A DNA stretch of 64,000 nucleotides, taken from assembly GCA_951406725.2 (NCBI GenBank), contig OX597840.1, positions 26,226,001-26,290,000 on the forward strand. The letters are read 5' to 3'. The notes under the pieces were generated by a model. That model was not told the origin of the DNA. It made no database searches and worked only from the letters and a program-made list of their open reading frames with translations. Shown here piece after piece: positions 2,991 through 56,511 of the stretch (its first letter is position 1; each line of letters opens with the position of its first letter). Made by a program: the position numbers and the translations under genes. The DNA comes from Octopus vulgaris. Lineage: Eukaryota.

Positions 2991-3224
2991 TAGAGCCGAA
3001 ATTATTTAAAGACGAGAGTTAGTTCCCCTTGATCTTTCATCTGCGTTTTGAGAAATTTGCTGCCTTTTGTCGAGAGAGTTCGATTTTTTGCTTATCGTTG
3101 TTTGTGTTAATTGTTAATTGAACGGTGCCCGTTGTGTAACGGTAGTTTTCGCCCTGCGGGGCGGAAGGTTCTGTGTTTAAAATTGTTGTTACCTTCGGGG
3201 TGGGTTTTGAAACATTTTTGAGAA

Positions 3225-4639
3225 ATGGATTTCGACTTGGCGTCGAGGAGTGATTTTCCCGCGATGGGAACAGGTGAATTGGGGGACACTGAGGTGACAA
3301 AGCGGTCTTTTTCGGCCGCGGTGGGCGGAGCCATGATGGACGTTGAATTCGGGATCGAGCAACTGTTCGAATTTGGGAACTTGGTGAAGGTGGAAGGAGG
3401 CGAAATCAGGCGAGGGTACAAGAGGTGAAGGAGAAAGCAGTTGTATACAGGGTGTATAGCTGCAGGGAGGGGAAGATTATGGACGTCGGAAGCGAAATGG
3501 TCGAGAAGTGCTTGTCCCCGGTGTGGGACGGGGTTCGCCGTGTCGTTCGAGGTGCTCGCGGCGCTGCTGTTGAAGCACATTTTGACTCGGCTGAGGTGGA
3601 AGGGGGGTGTCATCATTGACCCTGAAAGTGATGATATCATGCTGCTGCCCTCGTATATGGGAGGAGGAGCGGCTGAACTGCTGGTGGAGGACATGCCGAG
3701 AGGGTGTGATATGGTGTGGGTGGCAGCGGCGGTCCTGCACAGTGTGGAGCGGGAGGTTTCGGTTCTGCAGATGAGAGGGAGGGAGGAGGTGCGCTGGAGG
3801 GGACGGACGCTGGAGCTCCTCGTTCAGGCGGAGAACAAGATATTGGAGAGCCTGCCCGATGGGATATTTGACGAGGATGGAGCGTCCATGGGAGTGTCAG
3901 TGGAGGGGCGCAGACCTAGATGTTTTAGATGTGGCGAGAGGGGTCGCGTCCGCTCGAGCTGCTTAAAAAAAAGAAAACCAACGAAGCCCCTCCTCAAAGT
4001 GCTTCAAACACTGAAGGGGAGAAGGCGGAAAAAGATAACAAGACGACGACAAGCAAAGAAACAGAAACGGATTGTATCGAACAAATGGATTACACACAGG
4101 TGACACACAAAAGAAAAAAAGACAACACCCTGGACTCCCCTCCCCAAACAAGGAAAAAATCAGCAAGCACCGCAGACATACACACAAAGCAAATTCCCCA
4201 GCCCTACCCCCATGGCACTGTATTCATTGGGAAACAGTTCGCCAAGCCCCTCCCCATAAAACAAGATGTGAAAAAGTCTTTAAATAAAAATGATAAGATC
4301 ATTGCTTTTGATGAAAAAAACGAAAGGGTATATAAATACTATAAATTTTCAAAATTTAAACTATTTAGCAAGGCTACAGACATAAAAGCAACCACTCGCT
4401 TCGCAAAAATAAAGGAAGACGAGTGGAAGGAGGAAATACTACAAGAACATCTAAAGAATAGACTGATAAGAGACGTAACAAAAGAAGTACTGGAGGGTAA
4501 ACTTGTTATAACCCCGGCAACCACACCTACCCAGAGCCCGGTGGCAACGCCGGTTAAGAGCCCTGCAGCTACGACCACAAGGGAGGAAGAAGGGGAAGCG
4601 GGCAGATTTAAACTGTCATGCTCCCTTTCTCAACCGTAA
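3225..4639 (+). pseudogene. Tx1 ORF1 (gag-like, degenerate knuckle CFRCGERGRVRSSC), about three frameshifts
   Basis: Overlapping ORF pieces 3225-3428, 3425-3619, 3441-4103, 3929-4639; YRVY, LLPSY and VEGRRPRC motifs are shared with the ORF1-only element. Confidence 0.8.
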
Positions 4640-4666
4640 GTTCATTTATTTTTTCTCTCACCGACA

Positions 4667-7600
4667 ATGGCTAAGCTGGGTTGTGTGAATGTACGTGGAA
4701 TGGGGACGAAATGGAAACAAATTTGTTTCCTGAACGACCTCACGACACATTGAGTAGACATAGCTATTGCAACCGAGTCCAAGATGAACGAGGCCCAAGC
4801 GTTCTCGCCTCTTCTAAATGGGTTCGAGAAATTTATTTCTCCTAGCCGAGGAAGAGGCAGAGGCGTGGCAGTCCTTATCAGGAAGAGCTTGGACTTGCAG
4901 GTAAGTACTGTCTTTCTGGACCCAGAAGGCAGGCTGGTTGTTCTGGATGTGACCCACGTAAGTAAACAGTCCTTCAGGTTGGTAGCTGTCTACGCTCCGA
5001 ACGAGGGTAGACAGACGGGTTTTTTCGGAACCTGGAGCCCTTTTTAGCGACGTCGAAAACGGTAATCCTAGTAGGGGACTTTAACACTGTCCTTGAAGCG
5101 CGGGTCGACAGTGTTGGCTCAACCAATAGGAAGGGGAACCCTAGCCTCAAGGGTCTACTAGAGAGCTTTGATCTAGTGGACCGTTACCGACTGGATGAGC
5201 CGAGCGTTCCACAGTGGACGTGGAGTAACAACGACGGCTCACACAGATCGTATTTAGATAGGATATTTATTAAGAAAAGAGATAAGGATACGTTTAGTTG
5301 TCCACAGTTTCACATTGTGCCTTACACGGATCACAAATTTGTGACGTGTAGGATGCAATTAGACAAGTGTCATAGACAGGGACCCGGGTACTGGAAGCTG
5401 AACAAGGCTATTTTGAATTGTGAAGACTTCCGTACCCGGATTAAGGTGTTAGTACAGAGGGCATTGTGTGGCACCATCATTAACAATAGATGGTGGCACT
5501 CCCTCAAAAGAGCCATTCGTTCAGAGTCCATTAGATTTAGCAATCAGCTAAGGTTAGATAGGTCTAGGATAGAGGACGATTTAGTTAAGAATCTAAACGA
5601 GGCAATGGAAGCTGGCTCTGCATCCGGAGTGATGGCGGCAAGGACGGTATTGTACCGTCACCTTAACTCCAAACACGAAGGTTGCAGAGTCAGAGCTAAG
5701 CTACGCGCTGGGAAACGAGAAGGTATTAACGTTGCCGGATGGGCCCGTCGAGTGGAGAGTCAGAGAGGTAACAAAGCCTCAATCAAGTCTTTAACTGACG
5801 AACAGGGACAAAAGATCTATGGACAGGAGGAGATGCAAAAGTTTCTTCACCAGCATTTCGCCCGCGTGTTCGGGGGTGGTGTGGCGCCGGAGCGGGGAGG
5901 ACCTTAAAGGACTTCCTGGCCGGCGGACCGCGGCTCTCGGGGCGTGAGGTGGAGTGCTGTGAAGAAGCGATCACTCCCGCGGAGATAGAGGGGATACTGG
6001 CCGGATGCGCCGGGGAGAAGTCGCCGGGGTTGGATGGTCTGCCCTACGAGTTTTACCAAAGTATGCCGGACTTGTTCGGGGGAATATTGGCAGGCGTCTA
6101 CACGAACTGGCAGCAGAATGGGAGAATTCCCAGTTCTGTAAGCCGGGGAGTGGTGACGCTAATCCAGAAAGACCCGAGCAAGGGGGATAACATTAGTAAC
6201 TACAGGCCCATAACTCTACTTAATGTAGAGTTAAAGATTTTGGCCAAGGTGTTGGCAAAAAGGTTGACGGTTGTCGTGGAGAAACTTGTAGGGAGAGCAC
6301 AGACATGTGCAATTCCAGGCAGGTCGATCCAGGACAATCTTCACCTTATACGCTACACCTTAGATAGGGTGGGTAAATTAACCGGCAAGGGCGGGGTAAT
6401 GGTCCATTTAGACCAAAGTAAAGCGTTCGATAGGGTAGACCATGAGTACCTGGCGACGGTCCTCGAAGCGGCTGGACTGGGCCCTGAATTTCGCGGGTGG
6501 ATCTCCGCTATGTATAGCGGCATCAAGTCCACCGTCCAGATAAACGGTTACCTAACGGAACCGTTTTCGATCGAATGTTCAGTTCGTCAAGGGTGCCCCT
6601 TGTCACCACTTTTGTACGTGTTGGCTCTTGAGCCATTGCTGCGAAAGTTGGAGAGGCTGGGAAGTAACTCGGATGAGATCGGAGGTGGGAGGACGGTTAC
6701 TGCTTATGCGGATGACGTCACCCTCATCGTGTCCAATGAGGCCCAGCTACCTTGTGTGGAAGAGGCTATCAGAGGATACGAGGCGGTGGCAGGAGCAAAG
6801 GTTAACAAGGACAAGTCGGTTGGCTTGCGCCTCGGCACCTGGAGGAACAAGTCGATATCGTCCAGTGTCGTGGGACACTGGACGGATGGCCCTGTTAAGT
6901 TGCTAGGAGTTTGGTTTGGGCCAGACTCCCAAACGGAGAGGAACTGGAGTGAGGTGACGAGCAAGGTGGAGGCCATAGTACGGACCTGGTCCGGAAGGTT
7001 TCTGTCCTTGAAAGGAAGGGTGGAGGTGGTACAGATGTTCATTGCATCTGTAATCACTTACCGCCTGACCGTTGTCCCTTGCCCCGATTCATGGCTTAGC
7101 AAGTTGGAGCGAATCCTTTTCCGCTTTTTGTGGAAGGGAGGAAAGCCACTTGTGAGGCGCTCCGTTTGCTGCCAGGAACCGTTAAAGGGTGGGTTAGGAA
7201 TGCCTTGGTTGATGATGCGCAGACATGTGTTGAGGCTGAAGCATCTCTGGCACCACCTGGAGGGTGATAAGGTGTGGAGTCCGCTGGCAGGGGAATTTTT
7301 CCCGAGACCGGCCTCCTTAGTGAATTTTAAACCCGGTCGCATCAAAAGATGGAAACTGACTTTATGGCAAAAGGAGTGCCGACAGGCACTCACGCTGATC
7401 CACAAGGCGGGCAAGGCCGGCTGCGGAAATACCACCTCGGTATTTTATAGAAGGCTGGTAGAGGCAAAGAACGACGACGTCCTAGGAGGGGCTCTGGGGT
7501 TTGACGAGGACCAGCTTACCAACCTGTTTAAAAAGACTTTCAGGACGGGGTACTTGGATAATTTCCAAAGATCCCTCGCCTGGCAGTGCTATAGGAATGC

Positions 7601-8054
7601 TTTACCTGTTCGCGAGAAGTTATCGCGGCACGGAATTTCAGTGCCACCGACGTGTCCAAGGTGCGAGTTGGACGATGAAACCGTCCAGCACGCTTTTGTA
7701 CACTGTCGGAAGTTGTCCGACTTGATAAGTTACGCAGAACACGTGTTATCGCATCTGGGACGAGTACAGCTGTCGGCTGAGTCTATGATTAAGATGATAC
7801 CGCCAACTGGACTCTCGAAGGAAGGTGAGGCATGTTTTCACTGCACAGTTGCAGTAGTAAAAGAATGCATGTGGCGAACAAGAATGGAAGGAGTCGCGAT
7901 AGGATCCTTTGTCTCGGGCCCCGGCTTGCTCACTTACTTCAGATATCATCTGAAGAGCAAAATGGGGCTGGAAAAGAGGATCTTACCACGGGGTGTGTAT
8001 GAGAAAAGATGGAAGGAAGTGGAAAAAAAGGTGGGTGTCAGAAACCCAGCTTAA
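4667..8054 (+). pseudogene. Tx1 ORF2: APE endonuclease, reverse transcriptase, C-terminal CCHC finger
   Basis: MAKLGCVNVRG, VAVYAP, LVGDFN, SYLDRIF, YTDH (APE); KSPGLDG, NYRPITLLN, KAFDRV, QGCPLSP, YADD (RT); CPRC..ETVQHAFVHC; TGA at 4751, frameshifts near 5025 and 5900. Confidence 0.92.
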
Positions 8055-8312
8055 CTATGGAGGGAGGAGAGGAAACAAAAGCTGCGGGGCCTTATAAATT
8101 GCCGGGGTTTAAAACTTCGGTAAAGATCGAAAGTTTATGAAATGTTATAATATTCTATTGGTCATGTAAAGGACAATTTACAGACGAATTTTTATAATGA
8201 ATAATCCAAATGTTATGGAAAATTTTTAATCGAACCTCTTAACTGTTTTTTGCATGTATGTCCTGTATGTGTCCTTTTATGTAACGATTGTATAATCGGA
8301 ATAAAGAAATAA

Positions 8313-8606
8313 AGAGTTAGTTCCCCTTGTCAAATCTCTTCCTAATTAATTGTATTTCTTGCTCTTGTTTCTCACGCACCTTGATTGTTTGATCAGTTCC
8401 ACTTTACGACTGATATTTAAGAGAAAACCCAATCAAATATATACAAATGATTGGTAATTAACTGTCTAAACAAACAGATACAGCATTTTTTATTACATTG
8501 ACCTGCGAAATATGAAGTAACGTTCGTTGTGAGAAAGGAAGAAATTCTCTTGAAGCTGTCAGAGTCCGCTCTGACTCGTTGACTCTCTCTTTATATCAAT
8601 TACTAT
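8313..8606 (+). promoter_or_regulatory. U1 putative promoter and non-coding exon 1
   Basis: GAGTTAGTTCCC motif; CCAAT 8429-8433 and ATTGG 8450-8454; GTAAGTA donor at 8607; block conserved in all units. Confidence 0.6.
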
Positions 8607-30821: not shown

Positions 30822-31700
30822 TTAACGGTATCGAACCGGTGGCAGGATGTTCTTTCTACATCTGGTGGATCTTGTGCTTCGCACCGGTGTCTGAGGTGTG
30901 TTGTTGGGCTGCTGATGGGTGGTTGGTGCCCAATGGGATGATGATTCTGTGGGTGTTGTCACTGATGCAGCAGGTGTTGTACTCGTTGTCTGCTGATGGG
31001 TGGTTGTTACATTTATAATGTGGTGGACCTTTATGCTTTGTCCTTCCATCTCCTGTTTATCATGTGAGGATAGTCTGGAAAGAACATCCGCCAATATCAG
31101 GTCTTTTCCTGGCTTGTACCTGATATCATAGTCGTATGTTTGAAGCCTTAACAGTAATCTTTGCAGTCTGGCTGGTGCTTTCGTCAGGTTTTTCCTATGT
31201 ATTTGTTCTAGCGGGCGATGGTCTGTTTCAGTATTGAAATGTCTTCCATACAGGTATGTATGGAACTTTTCACATCCATATACTACTGCCAGGAGTTCCC
31301 TTTCAAATTTTGAGTACCTCGTCTCTGTGGGTGAGAGAGCTTTCGAGGCATATGCAATGGGCTTACCTTCCTGTATCAGTGCTGCACCAACTCCTCTCAT
31401 AGAAGCATCAACTTGGAGTGTTACTGGTTTGCGTCTGTCATAGTATTGCAGAGTTGTCTCCTTACTGATGAGCTTTTTGATTGCTTTGAAATCCTGTGTG
31501 TGTGAAGCACACCAATCAAACTCTACGTCATCTTTGTTTAGTTCTCGGAGATTTGCAGTGTGATCGGCCAGCTTGGGTATGAAGGCTCCCATGTAGTGAA
31601 TGAGTCCCAGGAAGCTCCTGAGTTCCACCTCGTCTTTAGGTTCTTTAATGTCTCTGATTGCTTCCACTTTAGCGGGGTCTGGTTTAACTCCCTCTGCAGA
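30822..31700 (-). pseudogene. Gypsy pol fragment (RT thumb and RNase H)
   Basis: LRSFLGL, VDAS..GVGAAL, AYASKAL, ERELLAVV, TDHRPL, ADVLSR. Confidence 0.9.
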
Positions 31701-41796: not shown

Positions 41797-43452
41797 TCAG
41801 TGATACGGTTCCTCACCTGTATGAATACACTTGTGAGAAGCTAAGTTACAACCATCAGAAAATGATTTACCACAAATATCACAGTGATATGGTTTCTCCC
41901 CTGTATGAGTACGTTTGTGTCGAGTTAAGCTACGACCCTCAGAGAATGATTTACCACAGATATCACAGTGGTAGTTTCTTTCTCCGGTATGGATATGCTT
42001 GTGAATATCTAAGCTATGAGTACGTGAGAATGATTTACCACAAATATCGCAATGATATGGTTTCTCCCCTGTATGAACGAGTTTGTGTCTAGTTAAGTTA
42101 CTGCCAACAGAGAATGATCTTCCACAGATATCACAGTGATATGGTTTTTCCGCTGTATGAATGCGTTTGTGTGTAGTTAATCTACTGTTTTGAGAGAAAG
42201 ATTTACCACAGGTATCACAGTGATATGGTTTGTCCCCTGTATGAATACGTTGGTGTTTAATTAAGGTACTGCCATCAGCGAATGATTTACCACAGATATC
42301 ACAGGAATATGGCTTCTCTCCTGTATGAACCCGTTTGTGCTGAGTTAAGTTACCGCTTTGATAGAATGATTTACCACAGATATTACAGTGGTATGGTTTC
42401 TCCGCTGTATGAATACGCTTGTGTGTGGTTAAGCTACCGCTTTCAGAGAATGATTTACCACAGATATCACAGGAATATGGCTTCTCTCCTGTATGAACCC
42501 GTTTGTGCTGAGTTAAGTTACCGCTTTGATAGAATGATTTACCACAGATATTACAGTGGTATGGTTTCTCCGCTGTATGAATACGCTTGTGTGTGGTTAA
42601 GCTACCGCTTTCAGAGAATGATTTACCACAGATATCACAGGAATATGGTTTGTCTCCTGTATGAATACGTTTGTGTTTAATTAAGGTACTGCCATCAGAG
42701 TATGATTTATCACAAATATCACAGTGATATGGTTTGTCCCCTGTATGAATACGCTTGTGGTTGGTTACGGTACTGCTACCAGAGAATGATTTACCACAGA
42801 TATCACAGTGGTATGGTTTCTCCCCTGTATGAACACGTTTGTGTTTAGTTAACTTACTCCTTTGATAGAATGATTTACCACAGATATCACAGTGGTATGG
42901 TTTCTCCCCTGTATGAATACCCTTGTGTGTGGTTAAGCTACCGCTTTCAGAGAATGATTTACCACAGATATCACAGTGGTATGGTTTCTCACCTGTATGA
43001 ACACGTTTGTGTTTAGTTAAGCTACTGCCAACAGAGAATGATTTACCACAGATATTACAGGTATATGGTTTCTCTCCTGTATGAATACGTTTATGTTTAG
43101 TTAAGTTACTGCCAACAGAGAATGATTTACCACAGATATCACAGGAATATGGTTTCTCTCCTGTATGAATACGTTTGTGTTTAATTAAGGTAGTGCTATC
43201 AGAGAATGATTTACCACATATATCACAGGAATATGGTTTCTCTCCTGTATGAATACGATTGTGTCTGGTTAAATTACTTTTGTAAGAGAATGATTTACCA
43301 CAGATACTACAGTGATATGGTGCTTCCTCTGTATGAATTTGTTTGTGTTGATTGAATTTACTTTCTTCTAAGAATGACTCTTTGCAGATGTCACAGTCAT
43401 ATGATAATTTTCCTAATTCTTCCGACATCTCTTCAAGAAAAATATAATCCAT
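41797..43452 (-). CDS. C2H2 zinc-finger protein U5, 19 fingers (conserved MSEEL start at 43428)
   Basis: Finger repeats; poly(A) signal at 41045-41050. Confidence 0.95.
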
Positions 43453-44827
43453 CCTTCAAGTTCTACAGATCAACAACTTTTTAATAATATTTCTTCTCTC
43501 ACCAAAATTTATGGATATTTTGCTTCTTTTTGCTTTTATAGTTTATTCCAAACAAATATCACTTCTCTTATATTTCTTCTAAATGTGATCATTGCCAATA
43601 TTTAAAAATGTTGCAAATACTCTTTGGAAATCTATCAAAGTATATTTAAAAGAGAAAATTATCTCTTGCGCATTTCAGACACAGAAGTAAAGAAATGCTT
43701 TCTCTCTCAGAGGAAATATTTTACTGTAACTCAGCAATGTTTTATAGAAGCAGGATTATACGTTTGTAGAATATCTTTGCAGAGCCTTTCAAACATGATA
43801 CATATTGATGATTCTTTAAAAGTAAAAAATACCTTTTAGCCAATTTCATGTGATTTTTCTGAAAGAATAGAAAAAATAATATAAGACATCAAGTATGTTT
43901 AAAAGGTAGATATTCAAAAGTGCAAATTTACAACATTTCTGTTTTCATAAATTGTAGAATTGATCCTTTATCTGAAGTATTATATTCATCCCATCTCTCT
44001 ATTTTCAAGAGGTTTATATCACAGACACATCCATCGTAATAACACCTCCTGGACATTGCGTCTGTCCTAGACACACACACACACACCAATATACATGTCA
44101 ATGACAGTAGATATCTGATGTTTTCCCCTCAGTGTTCTATTGTATCAACACAGGTTTGTTTTATAACATAGACATCACTCCTCCTCTGCCTCTTTCTGTA
44201 TATGCATAAATATACAAATATATATATGTGGTTAGCTTAATGTTAACCTTTTGTTGAGCATAAAAGATGCATAAAAGTCAGTAATTAATATTGATGTCTG
44301 ACTTGCAGCATCAAAATCTTTTGTGGGGAATTTTTGATGTTAAGAAAAATTGATAAAATTGGTGACAATCCTTCTCCATGGGGCAAATGGCAGAGGCTTC
44401 AATGAAGTCTATCCTTATTTTACGGAAAAACTATAATTTCTTTTCATTGTTATGCACATAGTTTTAAAATTTAACCATTCTTGTTTTTATCTTTTAATTA
44501 TAAATTCTTACACATTATAATTAATGTTTCTCTTCCTTGTTGCTTCAAAACGAAATATTGTTTATCTGGATGAGTGAAAAATACATTCATATTAAATATA
44601 TACGCATTACGAAGAAAGAAAAGGATAACTTGCATAATTAATTGAAAATAACATTAAAAAAAGGGTGCAATTCTGCTTTAAACATTATATAGTTCCTTAA
44701 AATTCTTTTCCCATTTTTCTGTGGAATTTTCGGAAAATTCTCCAAATTTGTGACCTACATTATGAAAAAAATTGCCACTGTAGAACTTTGCTTAAATCCC
44801 AACAATGTGTTTATGTGGAGAAGGATA

Positions 44828-44996
44828 TCTTTTCTACTCTAGGCACAAGGCCAGAAATTTTGGGAGAGGGGGCCCAGTGGATTAGATAGACCCCAGTACG
44901 CAACTGGTACTAAATTTATCGACCTCGAAAGGATGAAAGGCAAAGTCGACCTCGGCGGAATTTGAACTCACGTGCTAACGATTCTACCAGCTCGCC
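44828..44996 (-). mobile_element. SINE, duplicated copy of 37821-37989
   Basis: Same sequence and same intronic position. Confidence 0.8.
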
Positions 44997-45985
44997 GGTT
45001 TTATATGGAGAAAAATACTGAAAAACGTCAGCACATCAGAGTGACAAAGAAACTAGGGAGGTATCAGGTGGTCGTGAGATGTGCGAAAAATAACAGCTAA
45101 ATAGCTCTTAAAGCACACAGTTTTTGCTTGTTTGTTGAATTCTCGTGTGTAGAATATTTGCAAAAATTTTCTGAAAATTCCGGAAAAAACAAAACAAACC
45201 CCAGATATTAATTGTAAGTTGTAATGATGCAGAAGAACCGCCAGAAATAAAGACTTCCTATGTCTCAAATAAAAGCCATTTCCTCTCGATACGATATTTG
45301 CTTTTCGTTTCAGTATTTCAAGTGCACACTCGTATTTTTATACATTCCCCATTTCTTACTAATTACATCGTAATTTTCCCGCATTTAACGAAATCGTCGA
45401 ATTTACACGTTAAAAAGAAAGATAAATGTTATCTAAACAAGGGATTGATCCGACGTTTTTACAAATAATTTAGAAAATAACCAAAAGTGCAATGAAATGT
45501 CTAAAAGAAAACGACAACACAATGAAAGTATTAAAATTACAGCCTTTCGTATAATTTCGTCTTAGTGAGATTTTTTTTCTTTTAACTTTCTCAACACATG
45601 GAAAGAAATAAACGTACATAATACGACACATATATAATAGAAATGTTTAAATAAATACTTACATAGTAATAGATATGGAGAGAAAGAGTGAAGGAGGAAG
45701 ATGTGAGAACTGGAGTCAGAGTGGACAAGGACAGCTTCAAGAGAATTTCTAGATTTCTACAACAAACATTAATTAATATTTTTCAGGTCCACATAATCGT
45801 AAATGCTGTATCTGTTTGTTTAGACAGTTAATTACCAATCATTTGTATATATTTGATTGGGTTTTCTCTTAAATATCAGTCGTAAAGTGGAACTGATCAA
45901 ACAATCAAGGTGCGTGAGAAACAGGAGCAAGAAATACAATTAATTAGGAAGAGTTTTTACAATTAACAACGGGAACTAACTCCAA

Positions 45986-47647
45986 TTTTTTTATTACCCA
46001 CCAGGGGCGGCGAAGAGGGGACATTACAAAACATTGGGGACATAGAACATTATAATTAAATTTATGAACAATGAATTATTAAATGAAAAAATGATAATAT
46101 GAAAGCGACGCTCTCGGCCCCATCCGCCAGCATCCCTTACCTGTCCTTTATCACCCATTTCCAATTACAATTCCTAGTTTTTCTATCACACTCTTCGTTT
46201 TCCTTTCATACATCTCTATCATTTCACCCTGCATCGGCACGGTCATCCATTTTATACCCTCTTCCTCACACCTCCTCGCCAATGTCTCCATAAATTCATA
46301 TTCCAAAACCGCGTAACTACCATCTTCATGTTCGCGCCATAAGTCTTTATGTACCATCCTTTCCGAGTTCTGGGTGTCCCTCCTCCTCGCAACACATAAA
46401 AAATAGGTCCTGGGACTTTGTTCGTTCTGTGTGTCTGCATTTGTTTTTGTTGTAGGCGGGGGTGGGGGGTGGAATCGCTGTTTGCAGGGGAGGGATGGGA
46501 CTCAGAGTGTACGGGTGGTGTTGGAGTTTCGTACAGTTTTCTTTTTTTTTTTTCTCCCTTCTTCCCACTCTTGCTGGATCTCCTCCTCTTCAGTTGCTTC
46601 CCTTTCTGTTTGGTTCTCCTTTTCTTTAGTGTCTTCCTTCTTTTGGGGTTCCGAAACGATTTCCTTTTCCTTTGGTGGGGGAGGGCAGTAGGCTCTTATG
46701 TGACCCCTCAGGCCACACTTATAGCACCTGGGCGCCCTGCCCTCCACCCACACTCTCATAATAATGTTCCCCGTTCCTACAGTATCTGTCAGCCCTTCCA
46801 CTGCTTCCGCCTCCGTCTGTATATTCATGTCCAAGGTAGCACCTCTCACGCCTTCGTATTTCATCGTGACGCGGAGGATGTCTACCTTTTCCTCGTTTCC
46901 CTTAATCACCGCTGCCGTTATGTATTCACCCTCTGGGTGTGGAGGTATTCCCTCCACCCAAATTCTTGTGGTCCTTCTATTTAGATACGAGGGCAGTAAG
47001 TATATTTTCTCGGTCTTCACCACCTTGGCTGCTATTTTTTTGGCGACGTTCTCACTTCTATACTGCACCGTTACCGTTCCACACTCCATTCCTCCAGTCA
47101 GGTAAACAATTTCCTCTCCAGTCTGTTTCAATGCCTCTTCAATAACTTCCACATTGACTATTTCCATCTTTCTTCCTCCATTCACGTACACTCTATATTT
47201 TATGGTTCTACGGTTGAACCCCTCGCCCCGCCTTGCTGGAGGTGACAGCTCGATTTCGCCGTTCTCCTCCTTCATAAAATTCTGGAAGCCTGGTAGTTTA
47301 GCCAGGTCCACCTCTTTTTCTATCGACTTCCTCATTATTCCTGCGTAGGTACTTTCCAGCTTCCTGTCCACTTTTGCCACTGCTTCTTCCAACTCCTCTT
47401 CAGATGTTGACAATTCCGGTAAACTTTCAAATAAATTCTTCCCGGCCATCTCACCAGTTAGGGAGAGGCGGCTCATAATCTCCTCAGACCGAAAACGGCC
47501 GCCCAAACAGAAACAGTGCAACGCGCAGAACCAGTGCGACGCGAAACCGCATCAACCGAAGTTCAAAACTCCACAACAACAACACTTTTTTTTTCTTTTT
47601 CACCGAATTCTACGAGCCGAGAAAAACACAACCGACGTCAAACGTTA
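45986..47647 (-). mobile_element. ORF1-only (HAL1-like) non-autonomous retroelement, copy A
   Basis: Single gag-knuckle ORF, no APE/RT; bounded by GGAGTTAGCTCCC (47648-47660) and GGAGTTAGTTCCC (45971-45983). Confidence 0.8.
46502..47476 (-). CDS. L1/Tx1-type ORF1 protein with CCHC knuckle (copy A; C-terminus shifted at an A12 run)
   Basis: CYKCGLRGHIRAYC; colinear with Tx1 ORF1; first ATG at 47476. Confidence 0.75.
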   Translation of the reverse strand: MSRLSLTGEMAGKNLFESLPELSTSEEELEEAVAKVDRKLESTYAGIMRKSIEKEVDLAKLPGFQNFMKEENGEIELSPPARRGEGFNRRTIKYRVYVNGGRKMEIVNVEVIEEALKQTGEEIVYLTGGMECGTVTVQYRSENVAKKIAAKVVKTEKIYLLPSYLNRRTTRIWVEGIPPHPEGEYITAAVIKGNEEKVDILRVTMKYEGVRGATLDMNIQTEAEAVEGLTDTVGTGNIIMRVWVEGRAPRCYKCGLRGHIRAYCPPPPKEKEIVSEPQKKEDTKEKENQTEREATEEEEIQQEWEEGRKKKKKTVRNSNTTRTL

Positions 47648-47662
47648 GGGAGCTAACTCCAA

Positions 47663-48130
47663 TTTCTTTATTATGATTATACAATCGTTACATAGAAGGA
47701 CAAATACAGGACATACATGCAAAAAACAGTTAAGAGGTTCGATTAAAAATTTTCCATAACATTTGGATTATTCATTATAAAAATTCGTCTGTAAATTGTC
47801 CTTTACATGACCAATAGAATATTATAACATTACATAAACTTTCGATCTTACCGAAGTTTTAAACCCCGGCAATTTATAAGGCCCCGCAGCTTTTGTTTCC
47901 TCTCCTCCCTCCATAGTTAAGCTGGGTTTCTGACACCCACCTTTTTTTCCACTTCCTTCCATCTTTTCTCATACACACCCCGTGGTAAGATCCTCTTTTC
48001 CAGCCCCATTTTGCTCTTCAGATGATATCTGAAGTAAGTGAGCAAGCCGGGGCCCGAGACAAAGGATCCTATTGCGACTCCTTCCATTCTTGTACGCCAC
48101 ATGCATTCTTTTACTACTGCAACCGTGCAG
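47663..48130 (-). mobile_element. Short 3' Tx1 fragment
   Basis: Matches 7841-8310; ends TAATAAAGAAAT then TGGAGTTAGCTCCC. Confidence 0.93.
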
Positions 48131-50149
48131 AAAGGCTTTGATAGAATTCCTGTTGGCCACACACCAAGGTTCAACAGAACCTACTGAAGCAAGCCAACGT
48201 GCTTCTGGCATTATCACAGGCAAGAGCAAGAAGTCGACATTAAAGTTCGTACTGTTTTCAAATTTTGGCACAAGGCTAGCAATTCCACGGGTGTGTGTGT
48301 GTATGTTAAGTTGAATATGTCGATTTCAGTGCTCAACCGTTGATTACTTCCACTAACCCCCAAAAGGACAAAAGACAAAGTCCACCTTGGCAGAATTTAA
48401 ATGCAAATGTCATGTCAGAAGAACCACAGCTAAGCATTTTCCCCAATGTGCTAACGACCCTGCCAGTTCGCCACCTTAGTTTATTATTAATTACTAGTGG
48501 GACCCGTGTAAATTCTCCAGAAGGAAAAAAATTAAGAGGACCTATTTAAGAAAGAGAGGATGATTTGCATCTTTATAGCATTCATAGATTTAGCTTTCTT
48601 TGAATATACTTGGCATCTGTCTACATCCAATTCCTCACAACACCATCGGTGCCATCTTTTTCCTCTTTTTTATTATATCTTCTTAGTGTTCCATGCTCTA
48701 GATCTGTGCATCTTTTCTCAGGCAGCTTGCAACTGTGTCTCTTGTGAATCCATAGTTTAGGCTAAATTAATCCTTAGAAACAAATATCAATCTCTTAAGT
48801 GAGAAGGCGATAAATAATTGCACAGAAGTGCAAGTGTTGAGTGATGGTCTCTATAAAAAAAAGAAATTCCTTTTCGCAATCAACACACCACCACCACCAC
48901 CATCATCATCATCTCTCTCTCTCTCTCTGTTCCTTTCTTTAATATCAACATCAGAACATCACCCCTCTGCTAAGATTATATTTCTAACTCTTCTCTATAT
49001 CACAAACTTCAGCTAGCTTTTTTAACCATAAAATAACTATTACATTCCCCCTATCACATGTCATGCTTGCTTCTTTCTTAGTCTTTTGTCTCTCCCTTTT
49101 CTTTCTTTCTCTATTTGGCCCTCTCTTTGTCTTATAATCTCTTCTCTCTCTACCCCTTTTTCTCTAATAACATGAAAGTGTTACTGACGAGCTAAGTAAC
49201 AGAATGAGAAGCAGAATTATTATAAGATCACCTTACTCTATTTCTCCCTCCCTTTTCCCCACTTCTATCCCCACCCCTCATTTATTCCACTAATCTAATG
49301 AAAGCATAACAGCTGTACAAACAAGCTGGTTATTATATATATACATAAATATCATTTATGTCTGAGGTTTGGATAATATTCTTTGCAGAGTAATTACATA
49401 TCACATAAGGAGACTGGAAAACAGTTTGATAGTATTTATTCAGCATTACATGTGTTTCATTACCTAATAGGAATTATAAACTTTTAGACAAAGAGAAAAC
49501 ATGTAAAATATCTCCTATAAGAAATTCTTCATACATACATATATACACGTGTGTGAGTGTGTGTGTGTATGCGCAAGTGAGTGTACCCTTGTCCAGATAG
49601 TATGTGATGTCCGTCATACTTGTGCAGTTCTTCATTTCCAGTCCACTGCGTAAATTATGTCTCACCAGGAAAAATATTTCCTTGCTTGGAAACAGGTGAG
49701 GATTGGTGACAAGAAAGGGTACCCAGCTCAGGAAAATCTCCATCAATGAATTCCATCTGATCCATTGAAGCATGGAAAAGCAAATTTTAAATGATGATGA
49801 TTATCATCTTTGTAGTGATATGGTTCCTCTTCTGTATGAATGTAGTTATGTTTTAATAATTGATCATTTTCATAGATTGACTTAGCACAAATGTCTTAGG
49901 GCATGGTTTTATCTTTCATATTAATATGACTGTGTAGAATTCTCCATCTCCATAGAATGATTAAGCACTGCTATCACAGTGATATGTTTTCCTTCCTCTG
50001 TCAATGCTCTTTTGATTCGTTAATGGATCATTTCAGATGAAAGGCTTACCATTGATATCACATTGATATAGTTTCTTTCTTGTGTAGAGGGTTTTATGAG
50101 ATACAAACTTGTCCTTCTGAAGGAATGTTATACAACCAATGTCACTGTG

Positions 50150-51775
50150 TTATGGATCAACTTCACAACGAATACACTTGTGTTTAATTGAGTGATGTTT
50201 TTGTGAGAATGATTCACCACAGATGTCACAGCGATATGGTTCCTCACCTGTGTGAATATGTTTATGTGCAGTCAAGTTACTGCCAATAGAGAATGATTTA
50301 CCACAGATATTACAGTGATATGGTTTCTCTCCTGTATGAATACGCCTGTGTTTAGTTAAGCTGCTGCTTTCAGAGAAAGATTTGCCACAGATATCACAGT
50401 GGTATGGTTTCTCCCCTGTATGAATACGCCTGTGTTTAGTTAAGATAATGTCCTGAGAGAATGATTTACCACAGATATCACAGTGGTATGGTTTCTCCCC
50501 TGTATGAATACGCCTGTGTTTAGTTAAGATAATGTCCTGAGAGAATGATTTACCACAGATATCACAGTGGTATGGTTTCTCCCCTGTATGAATACGCTTG
50601 TGTTTGGTTAAGCCACTGCTTTCAGAGAATGATTTACCACAGATATCACAGGGATATGGTTTGTTTCCTGTATGAATACGTTTGTGTTTAATTAAGGTAC
50701 TGCCTTGAGAGAATGATTTACCACAAATATCACAGTGATATGGCTTGTCTCCTGTATGAATACGTTTGTGTGCAGTTAAGTTACAGCGAACAGAGAAAGA
50801 TTTACCACAGGTATCACAGTGATATGGTTTGTCCCCTGTATGAATACGTTGGTGTTTAATTAAGGTACTGCCATCAGCGAATGATTTACCACAGATATCA
50901 CAGGAATATGGCTTCTCTCCTGTATGAACCCGTTTGTGCTGAGTTAAGTTACCGCTTTGATAGAATGATTTACCACAGATATTACAGTGGTATGGTTTCT
51001 CCGCTGTATGAATACGCTTGTGTGTGGTTAAGCTACCGCTTTCAGAGAATGATTTACCACAGATATCACAGGAATATGGTTTGTCTCCTGTATGAATACG
51101 TTTGTGTTTAATTAAGGTACTGCCATCAGAGTATGATTTATCACAAATATCACAGTGATATGGGTTGTCCCCTGTATGAATACGCTTGTGGTTGGTTACG
51201 GTACTGGTACCAGAGAATGATTTACCACAGATATCACAGTGATATGGTTTCTCACCTGTATGAACACGTTTGTGTTTAGTTAAGTCACTCCTTTGATAGC
51301 ATGATTTACCACAGATATCACAGTGGTATGGTTTCTCCCCTGTATGAATACCCTTGTGTGTGGTTAAGCTACCGCTTTCAGAGAATGATTTACCACAGAT
51401 ATCACAGTGGTATGGTTTCTCACCTGTATGAACACGTTTGTGTTTAGTTAAGCTACTGCTTTCAGAGAATGATTTACCACAGATATTACAGGTATATGGT
51501 TTCTCTCCTGTATGAATACGTTTATGTTTAGTTAAGTTACTGCCAACAGAGAATGATTTACCACAGATATCACAGGAATATGGTTTCTCTCCTGTATGAA
51601 TACGATTGTGCCTGGTTAAATTACTTTTGTAAGAGAATGATTTACCACAGATACTACAGTGATATGGTGCTTCCTCTGTATGAATTTGTATGTGTTGATT
51701 GAATTTACTTTCTTCTAAGAATGACTCTTTGCAGATGTCACAGTCATATGATGATTTTCCTAATTCTTCCGACAT
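50150..51775 (-). CDS. C2H2 zinc-finger protein U6, 541 aa, 18 fingers plus a degenerate terminal finger
   Basis: Finger repeats; poly(A) signal at 49435-49440. Confidence 0.95.
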
Positions 51776-53203
51776 CTCTTCAAGAAAAATAAAACTGAAC
51801 CTTCAAGTTGTACAGATCAACAACTTTTTAATAATATTTCTACTCTCACCAAAATTTATGGATATTTTGCTTCTTTTTGCTTTTATAGTTTATTCCAAAC
51901 AAATATCACTTCTCTTATATTTCTTCTAAATGTGATCATTGCCAATATTTGAAAATGTTGCAAATACTCTTTGGAAATCTATTAAAGTATATTTAAAAGA
52001 GAAGATTATCTTCTGCACATTTCAGACACAGAAGTAAAGAAATGCTTTCTCTCTCAGAGGAAATATTTTACTGTAATTCAGCAATGTTTTCTAGAAGCAG
52101 GATTATACGTTTGTAGAATATCTTTGCAGAGTCTTTCAAACATGATACATATTGATGATTCTTTAAAAGTAAAAAATACTTTTTAGCCAATTTCATGTGA
52201 TTTTTCTGAAAGAATAGAAAAAATAATATAAGACATCAAGTATGTTTAAAAGGCAGATATTCAAAAGTGCAAATTTACGACATTTCTGTTTTCATAAATT
52301 GTAGAAGTAATTCTTTATCTGAACTATTAAAGTTATCCCATCTCTCTATTTTCAAGAGGTTTATATCACAGACACATCCATCGTAATAACACCTCCTGGA
52401 CATTGCGTCTGTCCTAGACACACATACACACACCAATATACATGTCAATGACAGTAGATATCTGATGTCTTCCCCTCAGTGTTCTATTGTATCAACACAG
52501 GTTTGTTTTATAACACAGACATCACTCCTCCTCTGCCTCTTTCTGTATGTGCATAAATATACAAATATATATATGTGGTTAGCTTAATGTTAACCTTTTG
52601 TTGAGCATAAAAGATGCATAAAAGTCAGTAAATAATATTGATGTCTGACTTGCAGCATCAAAATCTTTTGTGGGGAATTTTTGATGTTAAGAAAAATTGT
52701 TGGTTGATGAAATTGGTGACAATCCTTCTCCATGGGGCAAATGGAAGAGGCTTCAATGAAGTCTATCCTTATTTTACGGAAAAACTATAATTTCTTTTCA
52801 TTGTCATGCACATAGTTTTAAAACTTAGCCATTCTTGTTTCTTTCTTTTAATTATAAATTCTTACACATTATAATTAATGTTTCTCTTCCTTGTTGCTTC
52901 AAAACGAAATATTGTTTATCTGGATGAGTGAAAAATACATTCATATTAAATATATACGCATTACGAAGAAAGAAAAGGATAACTTGCATAATTAACTGAA
53001 AATAACATTAAAAAAAGGGTGCAATTCTGCTTTAAACATTATATAGTTCCTTAAAATTCTTTTCCCATTTTTCTGTGGAATTTTCGGAAAATTCTCCAAA
53101 TTTGTGACCTACATTATGAAAAACATTGTTTCCCATTTTTTAAAAAATTGCCACTGTAGAACTTTGCTTAAATCCCAACAATGTGTTTATGTGGAGAAGG
53201 ATA

Positions 53204-53373
53204 TCTTTTCTACTCTAGGCACAAGGCCAGAAATTTTGGGAGAAGGGGTCCCAGTGGATTAGATAGACCCCAGTACGCAACTGGTACTAAATTTATCGAC
53301 CTCGAAAGGATGAAAGGCAAAGTCGACCTCGGCGGAATTTGAACTCACGTGCTAACGATTCTACCAGCTCGCC
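53204..53373 (-). mobile_element. SINE, duplicated copy of 37821-37989
   Basis: Same sequence and same intronic position. Confidence 0.8.
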
Positions 53374-54363
53374 GGTTTTATATGGAGAAAAATACTGAAA
53401 AACGTCAGCACATCTGAGTGACAAAGAAACTAGGGAGGTATCAGGTGGTCGTGAGATGTGCGAAAAATAACAGCTAAATAGCTCTTAAAGCACACAGTTT
53501 TTGCTTGTTTGTTGAATTCTCGTGTGTAGAATATTTGCAAAAATTTTCTGAAAATTCCGGAAAAAACAAAACAAACCCCACATATTAATTGTAAGTTGTA
53601 ATGATGCAGAAGAACCGCCAGAAATAAAGACTTCCTATGTCTCAAATAAAAGCCATTTCCTCTCGATACGATATTTGCTTTTCGTTTCAGTATTTCAAGT
53701 GCACTCTCGTATTTTTATACATTCCCCATTTCTTACTAATTACATCGTAATTTTCCCGCATTTAACGAAATCGTCGAATTTACACGTTAAAAAGAAAGAT
53801 AAATGTTATCTAAACAAGGGATTGATCCGACGTTTTTACAAATAATTTAGAAAATAACCAAAAGTGCAATGAAATGTCTAAAAGAAAACGACAACACAAT
53901 GAAAGTATTAAAATTACAGCCTTTCGTATAATTTCGTCTTAGTGAGATTTGTTTTCCTTTTAACTTTCTCAACACATGGAAACAAATAAATGTACATAAT
54001 ACGACACATATATAATAGAAATGTTTAAATAAATACTTACATAGTAATAGATATGGAGAGAAAGAGTGAAGGAGGAAGACGTGAGAACTGGAGTCAGAGT
54101 GGACAACGACAGCTTCAAGAGAATTTCTAGATTTCTACAACAAACGTTAATTAATATTTTTCACGTCCACATAATCGTAAATGCTGTATCTGTTTGTTTA
54201 GACAGTTAATTACCAATCATTTGTATATATTTGATTGGGTTTTCTCTTAAATATCAGTTGTCAAGTGGAACTGATCAAACAATCAAGGTGCGTGAGAAAC
54301 AGGAGCAAGAAATACAATTAATTAGGAAGAGTTTTGCCGATGAACGACGGGAACTAACTCCGA

Positions 54364-56029
54364 TTTCTTTATTACCCACCAGGGGCGGCGAAGAGGGGAC
54401 ATTACAAAACATTGGGGACATAGAACATTATAATTAAATTTATGAACAATGAATTATTAAATGAAAAAATGATAATATGAAAGCGACGCTAACGGCCCCA
54501 TCCGCCAGCATCACTTACCTGTCCTTTATCGCCCATTTCCAATTACAATTCCTAGTTTTTCTATCACACTCTTCGTTTTCCTTTCATACATCTCTATCAT
54601 TTCACCCTGCATCGGCACTGTCATCCATTTTATACCCTCTTCCTCACACCTCCTCACCAATGTCTCCATAAATTCATATTCCAAAACCGCGTAACTACCA
54701 TCTTCATGTTCGCGCCATAAGTTTTTATGTACCATCCTTTCCGAGTTCTGGGTGTCCCTCCTCCTCGCAACACATAAAAAATAGGTCCTGGGACTTTGTT
54801 CGTTCTGTGTGTCTGCATTTGTTTTTGTTTTTCTTGTAGGCGAGGAGTGGGTGGAATCGCTGTTTGCAGGGGAGGGATGGGACTCAGAGGGTACGGGTGG
54901 TGTTGGGGTTTCGTACAGTTTTCTTTTTTTTTTCTCCCTTCTTCCCACTCTTGCTGGATCTCCTCCTCTTCAGTTGCTTCCCTTTCTGTTTGGTTCTCCT
55001 TTTCTTTAGTGTCTTCCTTCTTTTGGGGTTCCGTAACGATTTCCTTTTCCTTTGGTGGGGGAGGGCAGTAGGCTCTTATGTGACCCCTCAGGCCACACTT
55101 ATAGCACCTGGGCGCCCTGCCCTCCACCCACACTCTCATAATAATGTTCCCCGTTCCTACAGTATCTGTCAGCCCTTCCACTGCTTCCGCCTCCGTCTGT
55201 ATATTCATGTCCAAGGTAGCACCTCTCACGCCTTCGTATTTCATCGTGGCGTGGAGGATGTCCACCTTTTCCTCGTTTCCCTTAATCACCGCTGCCGTTA
55301 TGTATTCACCCTCTAGGTGTGGAGGTATTCCCTCCACCCCAATTCTTGTGGTCCTTCTATTTAGATACGAGGGCAGTAAGTATATTTTCTCGGTCTTCAC
55401 CACCTTGGCTGCTATTTTTTTGGCGACGTTCTCACTTCTATACTGCACCGCAACAGTTCCATACTCCATTCCTCCAGTCAGGTAAACAATTTCCTCTCCA
55501 GTCTGTTTCAATGCCTCTTCAATAACTTCCACATTGACTATTTCCATCCTTCTTCCCCCATTCACGCACACTCCATATTTTATGGTTCCACGATTCAACC
55601 ACTGGCCCCGCCTTGCCGGAGGTGACAGCTCGACCTCGCCGTTCTCCTCCTCCTTCATAAAATTCTGGAAGCCTGGTAGTTTAGCCAGGTCCACCTCTTT
55701 TTCTATCGACTTCCTCATTATTCCTGCGTAGGTACTTTCCAGCTTCCTGTCCACTTTTGCCACTGCTTCTTCCAACTCCTCTTCAGATGTTGACAATTCC
55801 GGCAAACTTTCAAATAAATTCCTCCCGGCCATCTCACCAGTTAGGGAGAGGCGGCTCATAATCTCCTCAGACCGAAAACGGCCGCCCAAACAGAAACAGT
55901 GCAACGCGCAGAACCAGTGCGACGCGAAACCGCATCAACTGAAATTCAAAACTCCACAACAACAACACTTTTTTTTCTTTTTCACCGAATTCTACGAGCC
56001 GAGAAAAACACAACCGACGTCAAACGTTA
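54364..56029 (-). mobile_element. ORF1-only (HAL1-like) non-autonomous retroelement, copy B
   Basis: Homologous end to end with copy A; bounded by motif copies at 56030-56042 and 54349-54361. Confidence 0.8.
54526..55859 (-). CDS. L1/Tx1-type ORF1 protein with CCHC knuckle (copy B; as assembled it stops at 54654, and one extra A in the A10 run gives 444 aa ending at 54526)
   Basis: CYKCGLRGHIRAYC; ORF track 54654-55904 and 54526-54948. Confidence 0.7.
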
Positions 56030-56044
56030 GGGAGCTAACTCCAA

Positions 56045-56511
56045 TTTCTTTATTATGATTATACAATCGTTACATAGAAGGACAAATACAGGACATACAT
56101 GCAAAAACAGTGAAGAGGTTCGATTAAAAATTTTCCATAACATTTGGATTATTCATTATAAAAATTCGTCTGTAAATTGTCCTTTACGTGACCAATAGAA
56201 TATTATAACATTACATAAACTTTCGATCTTACCGAACTTTTAAACCCCAGCAATTTATAAGGCCCCGCAGCTTTTGTTTCCTCTCCTCCCTCCATAGTTA
56301 AGCTGGGTTTCTGACACCCACCTTTTTTTCCACTTCCTTCCATCTTTTCTCATACACACCCCGTGGTAAGATCCTCTTTTCCAACCCCATTTTGCTCTTC
56401 AGATGATATCTGAAGTAAGTGAGCAAGCCGGGGCCCGAGACAAAGGATCCTATTGCGACTCCTTCCATTCTTGTACGCCACATGCATTCTCTTACTACTG
56501 CAACCGTGCAG
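56045..56511 (-). mobile_element. Short 3' Tx1 fragment (duplicate of 47663-48130)
   Basis: Same 5' breakpoint and 3' junction. Confidence 0.93.

Follow-up and report, generated by a model that had tools for sequence, protein, structure and literature searches.

HAL1 and the CR1-derived Ag-Sponge are non-autonomous LINE derivatives that carry ORF1p only (PMC5753468, PMC5786205), and in the part of PMC5786205 available to us ORF1-bearing derivatives are listed for the Jockey, L1 and CR1 clades only. The same source describes HeT-A of Drosophila telomeres, whose only protein is ORF1(Gag) and which alternates head-to-tail in arrays with its RT-bearing partners TART and TAHRE; HeT-A proteins are presumed to form multimers with those of the partners. 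For crocodilian SINEU-3 and Tx1-Mar, and for Xenopus Tx1 in Tx1D, one site within a non-autonomous DNA transposon serves both passenger and Tx1, and tandem insertions there sandwich a duplication (PMC4494074, in excerpt).

Here we describe an ORF1-only element in a window of 64,000 nucleotides of Octopus vulgaris DNA. Like HAL1 and Ag-Sponge in the portions of those sources at hand, it is a non-autonomous LINE derivative with ORF1p only, but its partners are Tx1-type and target-selective, its fixed tail has no poly(A), and its copies lie mostly in mixed arrays. Unlike those of HeT-A, the octopus arrays are interstitial and bounded by a cut target, neither lying at nor extending chromosome ends, and a host role is putative at most. 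SINEU is a short snRNA-headed element found in tandem pairs (PMC4494074, in excerpt), whereas the octopus passenger encodes a conserved ORF1p and forms arrays of up to ~23 units; in contrast to SINEU-3, its target lies inside a Tx1 ORF1 remnant within a Helitron-like repeat. Our verdict is a HAL1/HeT-A-like element of putative Tx1-type origin. Judged by titles and the starts of abstracts, the literature outside Repbase, Dfam and most subscription journals holds no report of a Tx1-derived ORF1-only family, and a database entry may exist; literature on octopus Tx1, judged likewise, does not report such a family. A young Tx1-type clan with many intact copies and a nucleotide-exact target common to an intact partner makes passenger ORF1p retention, partner choice and non-telomeric array growth testable.

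An ORF1-only element at a zinc finger promoter

The features of the window are as follows, with boundaries read from the sequence unless another basis is given.

3015..8329, plus strand: full-length Tx1A with a 17-bp duplication of the same promoter motif
45663..45905, minus strand: first exon of a C2H2 ZNF gene, donor GT 45662-45661, 5' limit approximate (spliced contigs X2 and X7, and sequence)
45971..45984, minus strand: downstream target-site duplication of copy A (empty paralogues read ...taaagac|TGGAGTTAGTTCCC)
45985..47647, minus strand: ORF1-only element copy A, 1,663 bp (ends set by copies elsewhere in the genome)
45985..46150, minus strand: copy A 3' UTR, its final 45 nt being a tail common to Tx1B/Tx1C and a SINE
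46151..47476, minus strand: copy A ORF1, broken by TGA at 46502-46504 (sequence, against intact relatives)
46685..46726, minus strand: copy A zinc knuckle (CCHC), CYKCGLRGHIRAYC
47477..47647, minus strand: copy A leader, 171 nt (head similar to 5' ends of sibling elements and Tx1C)
47648..47661, minus strand: upstream 14-bp target-site duplication of copy A (promoter motif)
47662..48130, minus strand: 5'-truncated Tx1A lying upstream of copy A, with just its 3' end retained
54349-54362 and 56030-56043, minus strand: duplications of copy B
54363..56029, minus strand: ORF1-only element copy B, 1,667 bp, frameshifted
56044..56511, minus strand: 5'-truncated Tx1A upstream of copy B, breakpoint identical to that at copy A

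Copies A and B are 96.8% identical and are flanked by 14-bp repeats, TGGAGTTAGCTCCC/TGGAGTTAGTTCCC and TGGAGTTAGCTCCC/CGGAGTTAGTTCCC respectively; the two-copy element of ~1.66 kb and the ~170-nt leader of the original prediction are real. In run X4 a contig links position 45969 directly to 47647, and 14 letters at the join are compatible with either side. As predicted, the element lacks Tx1 endonuclease and RT domains in tblastn searches with the window Tx1 queries (best E 1.8), and Rfam gave zero matches within 45000-48500. The further claim of one ORF and a short 3' UTR holds for the ORF1-only content, but both window ORFs are broken, copy A by an in-frame TGA downstream of indels close to an A-run and copy B by a frameshift, and the true 3' UTR measures ~166 nt because intact relatives encode 425-473 aa including an extra C-terminal domain. 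TATA-like and DPE-like words were noted close to element heads.

The proposed order of Tx1 tail, motif, element, motif and ZNF first exon is correct. In contigs of X2 and X7 a splice joins 45663 to the exon upstream of the ZNF coding region, and one X2 contig spans the Tx1A-element junction. Among 30 promoter paralogues examined, 4 carry the element, 10 a Tx1A tail and 16 neither. The site has received both, since the element occupies the same motif nucleotide as Tx1A insertions. The element had been offered as a further independent insertion supporting specificity; instead, the three full promoter copies represent one event because a single 5' junction is common to all, and the four copies at the motif probably derive from one insertion. 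Nor are copies flanked by the motif genome-wide, as had been expected, since it stands at 3/206 element tail junctions plus one interrupted copy (L094). The proposed pair sharing a promoter target is thus upheld at this locus alone; neither promoter specificity of the whole family nor its pairing with the window Tx1 is supported.

When copy A is compared with L031, 1/469 sites differ in the Tx1A tail, whereas 52/1671 differ in the element and 15/341 in the promoter (p=6e-5). Judged by this divergence, the element probably inserted before the neighbouring Tx1A, and to call it stacked behind Tx1 probably inverts the order of arrival. A Tx1A tree is compatible with single or multiple promoter origins (4 changes, 1 forced). 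Gene conversion could likewise give Tx1A tails a young look, which counts against the model we favour.

A multicopy ORF1-only family

The element belongs to a discrete, multicopy, non-autonomous ORF1-only family with its own ends and target duplications. Its clan comprises 409 exact 18-mer matches in the genome and hundreds of ~1.7-kb elements, so copies are dispersed well beyond the duplication in the window. None of 214 ORF1s examined runs into an endonuclease or ORF2, which bears out the expectation of discrete copies without ORF2; a fixed 3' tail lies ~750-800 nt past the ORF1 knuckle in 206 of them, and the other 8 are at a stretch edge (4) or interrupted (4). The ORF is intact in 101/206 units, a fraction inflated by the choice of loci partly by similarity to an intact ORF. 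Target duplications of 13-24 bp flank 8/16 testable units against 0.1 expected. Counting against our favoured model, the other 8 have no duplication and in 9 units beyond these 16 the head is not detectable.

Between subfamilies the ORF1 core has a dN/dS of 0.09-0.22 (where dS<1), which is below 1 as anticipated and indicates strong purifying selection. The C-terminal domain gives 0.25-1.4, and window copies A and B give 0.66 on 13 changes. In a tree the clan forms its own clade (support 100/99), upholding the view that the element is not a recent deletion derivative.

Intact relatives encode, in order, two predicted RRM-type domains, a CCHC knuckle, a charged linker and a C-terminal alpha/beta domain, and the protein is predicted to bind RNA. 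The zf-CCHC domain was found in 16/20 aligned ORF1s, and some ORF1s are chimeric, with an H1 front and an H2 back. Identity to Tx1A ORF1 is 32% over the aligned core, so the proposed colinear but far diverged likeness is real and low; two of the motifs quoted for it, YRVY and CG.RG, are replaced by YKVY and CGEKG where L031 preserves Tx1A at full length, the window Tx1A being A-to-G hypermutated in this region. A word-based protein search with an intact ORF1 returned nothing at E<=0.001, and a profile search returned 1,716 matches; among ten looked up, nine were named Octopus or Argonauta proteins, and all were at most ~52% identical to the H1/H2 clan. Zinc knuckles were the sole matches in PDB sequence searches. 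In an atlas search the ORF1 resembles clusters whose RNA-binding domains are of ZCCHC3 type (rank 9, score 0.90); its C-terminal domain (pLDDT ~85) had zero atlas matches, and a separate fold search barely covered this domain.

Partner families and target sites

Tx1A, Tx1B and Tx1C encode an ORF2 with AP endonuclease, RT and zf-RVT domains downstream of a CCHC ORF1. An intact ORF2 of 1,131 aa is present at L045, and partner homologues carry PF03372, PF00078 and PF13966; the sole informative name among the at least 120 matches listed was 'Transposon TX1 uncharacterized 149 kDa protein' (35% over 421 aa). The element's tail is identical at 37/45 positions to Tx1C and to a Tx1B relative, at 36/45 to Tx1B and at 35/45 to an abundant SINE, with shuffle maxima of 26-28. 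It matches window Tx1A at 25/45 (shuffle maximum 26), yet the element sits at a Tx1A-preferred site, which counts against our favoured model. Hairpins in four tails did not beat shuffles (z -1.5 to 0).

The partners prefer target sequences: an ACATGG-type site is next to the Tx1B 3' end in 30/30 examined, and Tx1A is at the promoter motif in only 16/30 copies. Sixteen element tails also end at an ACATGG-type site. Tx1B is a young family whose target is one position in a Helitron-like repeat (repeat X, 1,284 copies), within a Tx1 ORF1 remnant that the repeat carries. Helitrons have a 5' TC and a 3' CTAG after a short hairpin and insert between A and T; repeat X, read in L301 and L302, has 5' TC and 3' CTAG past a short hairpin, between A and T, and both ends are present in most of 30 copies. 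The element shares exact sites with Tx1A at the ZNF promoter motif, probably through one event, and with Tx1B at the Helitron-like site, through many. Elements at the latter mostly lack Tx1B's 12-14 bp duplication, and often ~10 bp are deleted, again counting against our favoured model. Spread by hitchhiking on filled Helitrons was ruled out, as element pairs differ by 1.3% and their Helitron-like flanks by 6.1% (47/47 pairs). In a flank tree the branches are interleaved and lack resolution.

Head-to-tail arrays

Most copies lie in head-to-tail arrays of up to ~23 units that mix autonomous and ORF1-only elements, often at the single site in the Helitron-like repeat. The arrays lie within contigs and are bordered by host DNA at either end; examples are found 9.6 Mb along a contig of 119 Mb and 47.7 Mb along one of 118 Mb. 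The tail|head junction between units reads ACGTGG, compared with ACATGG for the Tx1B target. In the array on contig C8 an ordered block is repeated, units 0-2 matching units 8-10, so some units did not arrive by an insertion of their own, which tells against our favoured model.

A-to-G bursts

ADAR-type hypermutation is found in some retroviral proviruses. In the octopus family A-to-G hypermutation marks 15/206 units, against 0/206 for each of three control types, with an edited fraction by 5' neighbour of.33 (T),.27 (A),.13 (C) and.047 (G) and by 3' neighbour of.24 (G),.21 (C) and.14 (A). Clustered A-to-G changes depleted after G are described in hyper-edited repeat RNAs, where the octopus signal is among the strongest, in the available parts of PMC5625713 and PMC9989829. 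The 3' preference agrees with the latter and disagrees with the invertebrate A preference of the former, which counts against our favoured model.

The full-length Tx1A of the window carries 97 A-to-G changes compared with 2 T-to-C, and its 5' 1.2 kb holds 95 of these. Neighbouring units in L210 differ by 119 A-to-G against 7 other substitutions, and copy B has a cluster of 7 A-to-G differences opposite copy A 47169-47255. The bursts are strictly biased to the sense strand of the elements, on both genome strands, and this bias together with the ADAR-like context points to an RNA intermediate; the pattern in these sequences was likely left by RNA editing. Hyper-editing by ADAR is a known pattern in RNA (PMC5625713, PMC9989829, as far as available), whereas here it is fixed in genomic retrotransposon copies; literature judged by titles and abstract starts, most subscription journals excluded, holds no report of ADAR-edited genomic retrotransposon copies. 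If true, such copies would show ADAR at work on retrotransposon RNA that is heritable, and this in the group of animals most noted for editing. The bursts give each insertion a private barcode; three edit patterns plus unedited copies bring the number of separate Tx1A insertions counted at ZNF promoters to at least four.

Proposed mechanism and alternatives

We consider it quite probable that the element is a non-autonomous non-LTR retrotransposon with an ORF1 and a Tx1-type tail, likely copied in trans by any of several co-resident Tx1-type ORF2 proteins and likely landing at the partner's cut sites. ORF1p would coat element RNA and co-assemble with partner particles. Every insertion would provide a site open to further use, in the form of a duplicated target or of the ACGTGG junction, and arrays would grow from such sites by repeated insertion and local duplication. 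In the window, the element would have entered first, the locus then been duplicated, and Tx1A inserted later at the upstream motif copy; the A-to-G bursts would be ADAR edits fixed by reverse transcription. More tentatively, and at slightly less than even chances in our estimate, the whole may be an interstitial HeT-A/TART-like system in which several ancient ORF1-only lineages ride several Tx1 families, with the target rebuilt at each junction (ACGTGG mimicking ACATGG), trains of at least 20 units in a Helitron that spread a captured Tx1 ORF1 fragment, and ADAR hyper-editing before copying that leaves heritable and datable genomic records of germline editing.

Arrays might instead be single-event concatemers made as the partner RT jumps end-to-end between element RNAs in one particle, as is known for R2 (cited in PMC4494074, seen in part). 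At many junctions tail and head are separated by just 'AC', the 3'-most unit, which would be copied first, is frequently Tx1B, and the chimeric ORF1s would reflect template exchange; but locus-specific 12-21 bp spacers recur between units, including sibling-head duplications, as sequential insertion predicts, and Tx1C is 5'-most in L364 and L262, leaving this unlikely. Slightly less likely still, long arrays could be mainly satellites amplified from one or two insertions by unequal crossover or replication slippage. Such growth would suit the ordered C8 duplication, near-identical neighbour runs (0-1 differences) and a 3.6-kb repeat at C1:216.9 Mb that takes in flanking DNA. It sits poorly with a within-array divergence of 1.2%, the same as against arrays on other contigs, a unit identical across C8 and C10, several subfamilies per array, private A-to-G bursts in single units, as in L210, and unit trees of three arrays where belonging to the same array is no guide to how closely units are related.

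That the element is a dedicated passenger of window Tx1A which targets the ZNF promoter motif specifically and landed behind a Tx1 already in place is improbable: the insertion points coincide at 4/30 promoter paralogues, duplications of near relatives start AAGAGTTAG or AGTGTGTT, loosely motif-like, and both end in AATAAAGAAAT, but the motif is rare at tail junctions (3/206), the tail is no nearer Tx1A than shuffles, Tx1A itself is at the motif in 16/30 copies only, and divergence puts the element earlier. We give very little weight to a host-kept ORF1 with incidental mobility, which might for instance restrain Tx1 particles in the way of ZCCHC3, which reportedly suppresses L1, or of L1TD1. 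Strong purifying selection on the core and the ZCCHC3-type atlas likeness would fit, but selection between source lineages is expected for any mobile ORF, and the copies, dispersed, young and flanked by target duplications, number in the hundreds; many are broken, and we see no one locus at which the ORF is fixed. Only slightly less remote is an origin of the A-to-G bursts on DNA after insertion or as assembly errors, uninformative on an RNA stage. Edited units are over-represented at array starts and singletons (10/15 vs 36/191) and all four edited full-length Tx1A copies are at ZNF promoters, which looks position-dependent; against this stand the strict sense-strand bias on both genome strands, the depletion after G as in ADAR editing (PMC5625713, PMC9989829, in the parts available), and the duplicate Tx1A at L171, which has all 97 changes of the window copy.

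Window locus and element anatomy

The window is housed in a C2H2 zinc-finger (ZNF) cluster of the 2.8-Gb genome, with named protein homologues coming from Octopus species and Argonauta. The original prediction described an ORF1-only element with a motif on both sides, behind a Tx1 tail and ahead of the ZNF promoter, and both the coordinates and the splicing at 45663 confirmed this order:

47662-48130, minus: 5'-truncated Tx1-type tail, first in minus-strand order, upstream of copy A
Between Tx1-type tail and element, minus: TGGAGTTAGCTCCC, upstream motif copy
45985-47647, minus: element copy A, 1,663 bp
Between element and ZNF segment, minus: TGGAGTTAGTTCCC, downstream motif copy
Last in order, minus: ZNF-joined segment, spliced at 45663 (spliced contigs from two runs)
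54363-56029, minus: element copy B, repeating the copy A arrangement, 96.8% identical to A

As predicted (a leader of ~170 nt and one ORF without APE or RT), the element has a 171-nt leader and a single ORF bearing CYKCGLRGHIRAYC; a search for endonuclease or RT similarity in it came up empty (best E 1.8). The ORFs of copies A and B are broken, and that of an intact relative, L033, encodes 444 aa. An 8.3-kb tandem duplication (93%; window 41858-59476) comprises ZNF gene, promoter, element and the tail of Tx1A, the window's own Tx1-type family; copy B also contains a short tract like other family members, which suggests gene conversion. Elsewhere in the ZNF cluster are what we take, from motifs, to be a second, RTE-like RT ORF (25551-27074) and an LTR-type RNase H-like fragment (30822-31592).

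An ORF1-only clan under selection

Searching the genome with the element DNA yielded 71 matches (from 25 scored candidates) and with the ORF1 protein 95 scored matches of 59-100% identity, the majority stop-free; one element 18-mer occurs 409 times, compared to 0 for a reversed control. Near-identical sequence is also present in sequencing runs from four organisms. The retrieved genome stretches contain 214 ORF1 knuckles of H1/H2 type, of which 206 are followed ~750-800 nt downstream by the same tail, while 4 sit at the end of a stretch and 4 have been interrupted; in no case does an endonuclease follow, in agreement with the predicted discrete copies lacking ORF2. Among the 206 tail-ended units, a sample skewed toward intact copies, 101 carry an intact ORF of 425-473 aa. 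The ORF1 core has a dN/dS of 0.09-0.22 between subfamilies where dS < 1, below 1 as anticipated, and the C-terminal domain is fast-evolving (0.25-1.4).

The proposed ORF1 phylogeny placed 10 clan proteins in one clade (support 100/99), separate from 5 autonomous ORF1s, with two other ORF1-only types, HC and HD, splitting off deeper; a common origin of all ORF1-only types (81/86) is neither shown nor rejected. Such further types number at least two, HC and HD (L298:2718-4046, L199:4202-5608, L368), with another probably lying upstream of L033-L035; the C-terminal region varies from type to type.

A structural model of L033 ORF1 (mean pLDDT 69.6, pTM 0.39) predicts two alpha/beta domains, at ~82-168 and ~167-248. 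The first resembles RRMs in the model (La, Z 9.3, rmsd 2.4 A over 81 residues) and the second finds at best intermediate matches, of RRM/ACT type (Z up to 7.7). Downstream, the model places a knuckle, then a linker modelled with low confidence, and last a confidently modelled C-terminal domain, for which an atlas search has so far returned no match.

Partner tail and order of insertion

The original prediction paired the element with Tx1A. Over its final 45 nt, 37 positions agree with Tx1C and with a Tx1B relative, 36 with Tx1B and 35 with an abundant SINE but just 25 with Tx1A, where shuffle maxima are 26-28, and the tail does not support this pairing. This SINE-like repeat (L111-L140; 23,232 tail matches) likely has a Tx1-type partner; it also builds its own 184-bp tandem runs.

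Locus L031 reads full-length Tx1A, motif, element, motif, promoter. When all three of A, B and L031 are compared, the differences between A and L031 amount to 1/469 sites in Tx1A versus 52/1671 in the element and 15/341 in the promoter (p=6e-5; 4e-4 once an indel cluster is removed). The element had been proposed to stack behind an earlier Tx1; the simplest reading of these differences is instead that the element inserted first and Tx1A then used the upstream motif duplicate, the alternative being conversion of the Tx1A tail.

Insertion targets

Sharing of the promoter target held locally but not family-wide. Among 30 promoter paralogues, 4 carry the element tail, 10 the Tx1A tail and 16 neither, and Tx1A is at the promoter motif in 16/30 copies; the motif flanks the element at 3/206 tail junctions, in the closest copies only. 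One more, interrupted copy (L007/L094) lies at the motif, and every motif-flanked copy is on contig C27. The three complete copies have one common 5' junction and probably go back to a single insertion.

We surveyed loci using the first 100 18-mer matches listed (43 loci on C1-C3). Multi-copy loci hold 73 of these matches; 56 are at 16 loci with a ~1.1-kb Helitron-like repeat, X, and 8 more at X-type junctions, with neither seen at 25 of the 43 loci. Repeat X (L334-L363; 1,284 genome matches) starts with TC, ends with a hairpin and CTAG, and is located between A and T. Its insertion point, ttgaac|acatgg, is surrounded by a decayed Tx1 ORF1 fragment and occupied in 10 of the first 30 X copies. 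The X site follows the 3' end of Tx1B, a young family (3' ends 99-100% identical, intact 1,131-aa ORF2), in 30/30 ends, and 16 element tails likewise terminate there. Elements at the site diverge by 1.3% compared to 6.1% for X flanks (47/47 pairs), indicating that they entered X after X spread. Because the decayed fragment contains the Tx1B target, the original target of Tx1B may have been the ORF1 of a different Tx1.

Relation to known systems

ORF1-bearing non-autonomous LINEs are described for the Jockey (HeT-A), L1 (HAL1) and CR1 (Ag-Sponge) clades (PMC5786205), with HAL1 defined in PMC5753468. PMC4494074 reports a common DNA-transposon target, with tandem insertion, for Tx1 families and SINEU-3, and PMC13282606, on an octopus, gives no more than a count of L1-Tx1 families. 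A literature search judged on titles and abstract openings, with Repbase and Dfam outside its scope, found neither a Tx1-derived ORF1-only clan nor ADAR-marked genomic LINE copies. The element probably works in like manner to HAL1 or HeT-A, but is not HeT-A because it is not telomeric, and cannot be placed in strict HAL1; our Tx1 label is provisional, drawn from the order of the domains, the preference for a target and a single homologue with a name. The original observation is confirmed and its interpretation borne out in part.

Arrays

The longest head-to-tail runs have 15 units (C8:9.6 Mb) and ~23 units (C10:47.7 Mb), and another (C2:138.8 Mb) has 14 units plus Tx1B. Arrays bring different subfamilies, chimeras and HC/HD types together with Tx1B or Tx1C, and have spacers that are locus-specific duplications, sibling-head duplications or AC alone. 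As the most frequent junction, ACGTGG (38/206), is one base off the Tx1B site ACATGG, we infer that tail|head junctions turn into fresh targets. Within C8's array the median difference between units is 1.2%, equal to their difference from arrays on other contigs, one unit is identical between C8 and C10, and an ordered block of the C8 array is duplicated locally; retrotransposition and unequal exchange therefore both contribute to growth. The spacer found between units at C3:20.08 Mb is the sequence duplicated locally at the target of the C2:158.83 Mb array, as if a transcript had brought it along as its 5' tag. L367 (C18:49.0 Mb) is a nest of several Tx1A-like elements inside one another, with an ORF1-only element within an endonuclease region.

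A-to-G marks, probably of RNA editing

A sense-strand A-to-G excess is present in 15/206 element units, with T-to-C, G-to-A and C-to-T excesses in 0/206 each. Edited fractions by 5' neighbor are T.33, A.27, C.13 and G.047, and by 3' neighbor G.24, C.21, T.16 and A.14; in PMC5625713 and PMC9989829, depletion after G is ADAR's conserved signature and the 3' preferences disagree. Edited units are overrepresented at array starts (10/15 versus 36/191), and at L210 the substitutions between adjacent units are A-to-G in 119 cases and of other kinds in 7.

At ZNF promoters, full-length copies of Tx1A (window 3032-4200, plus; L175, L177, L171) bear 97-191 sense-strand A-to-G changes, almost all within the 5' 1.2-1.7 kb. 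The window copy has 97 (versus 2 T-to-C), all shared by its duplicate L171, whereas the sets of L177 (134) and L175 (191) differ yet overlap. These distinct sets point to separate insertions and imply that Tx1A entered the motif more than once. Five other promoter-associated copies have 6-11 changes, the dispersed copies examined have no such load, and 0/10 Tx1B copies show an excess. An inverted element fragment within an array (L228:7591-7999) is a possible source of double-stranded RNA.
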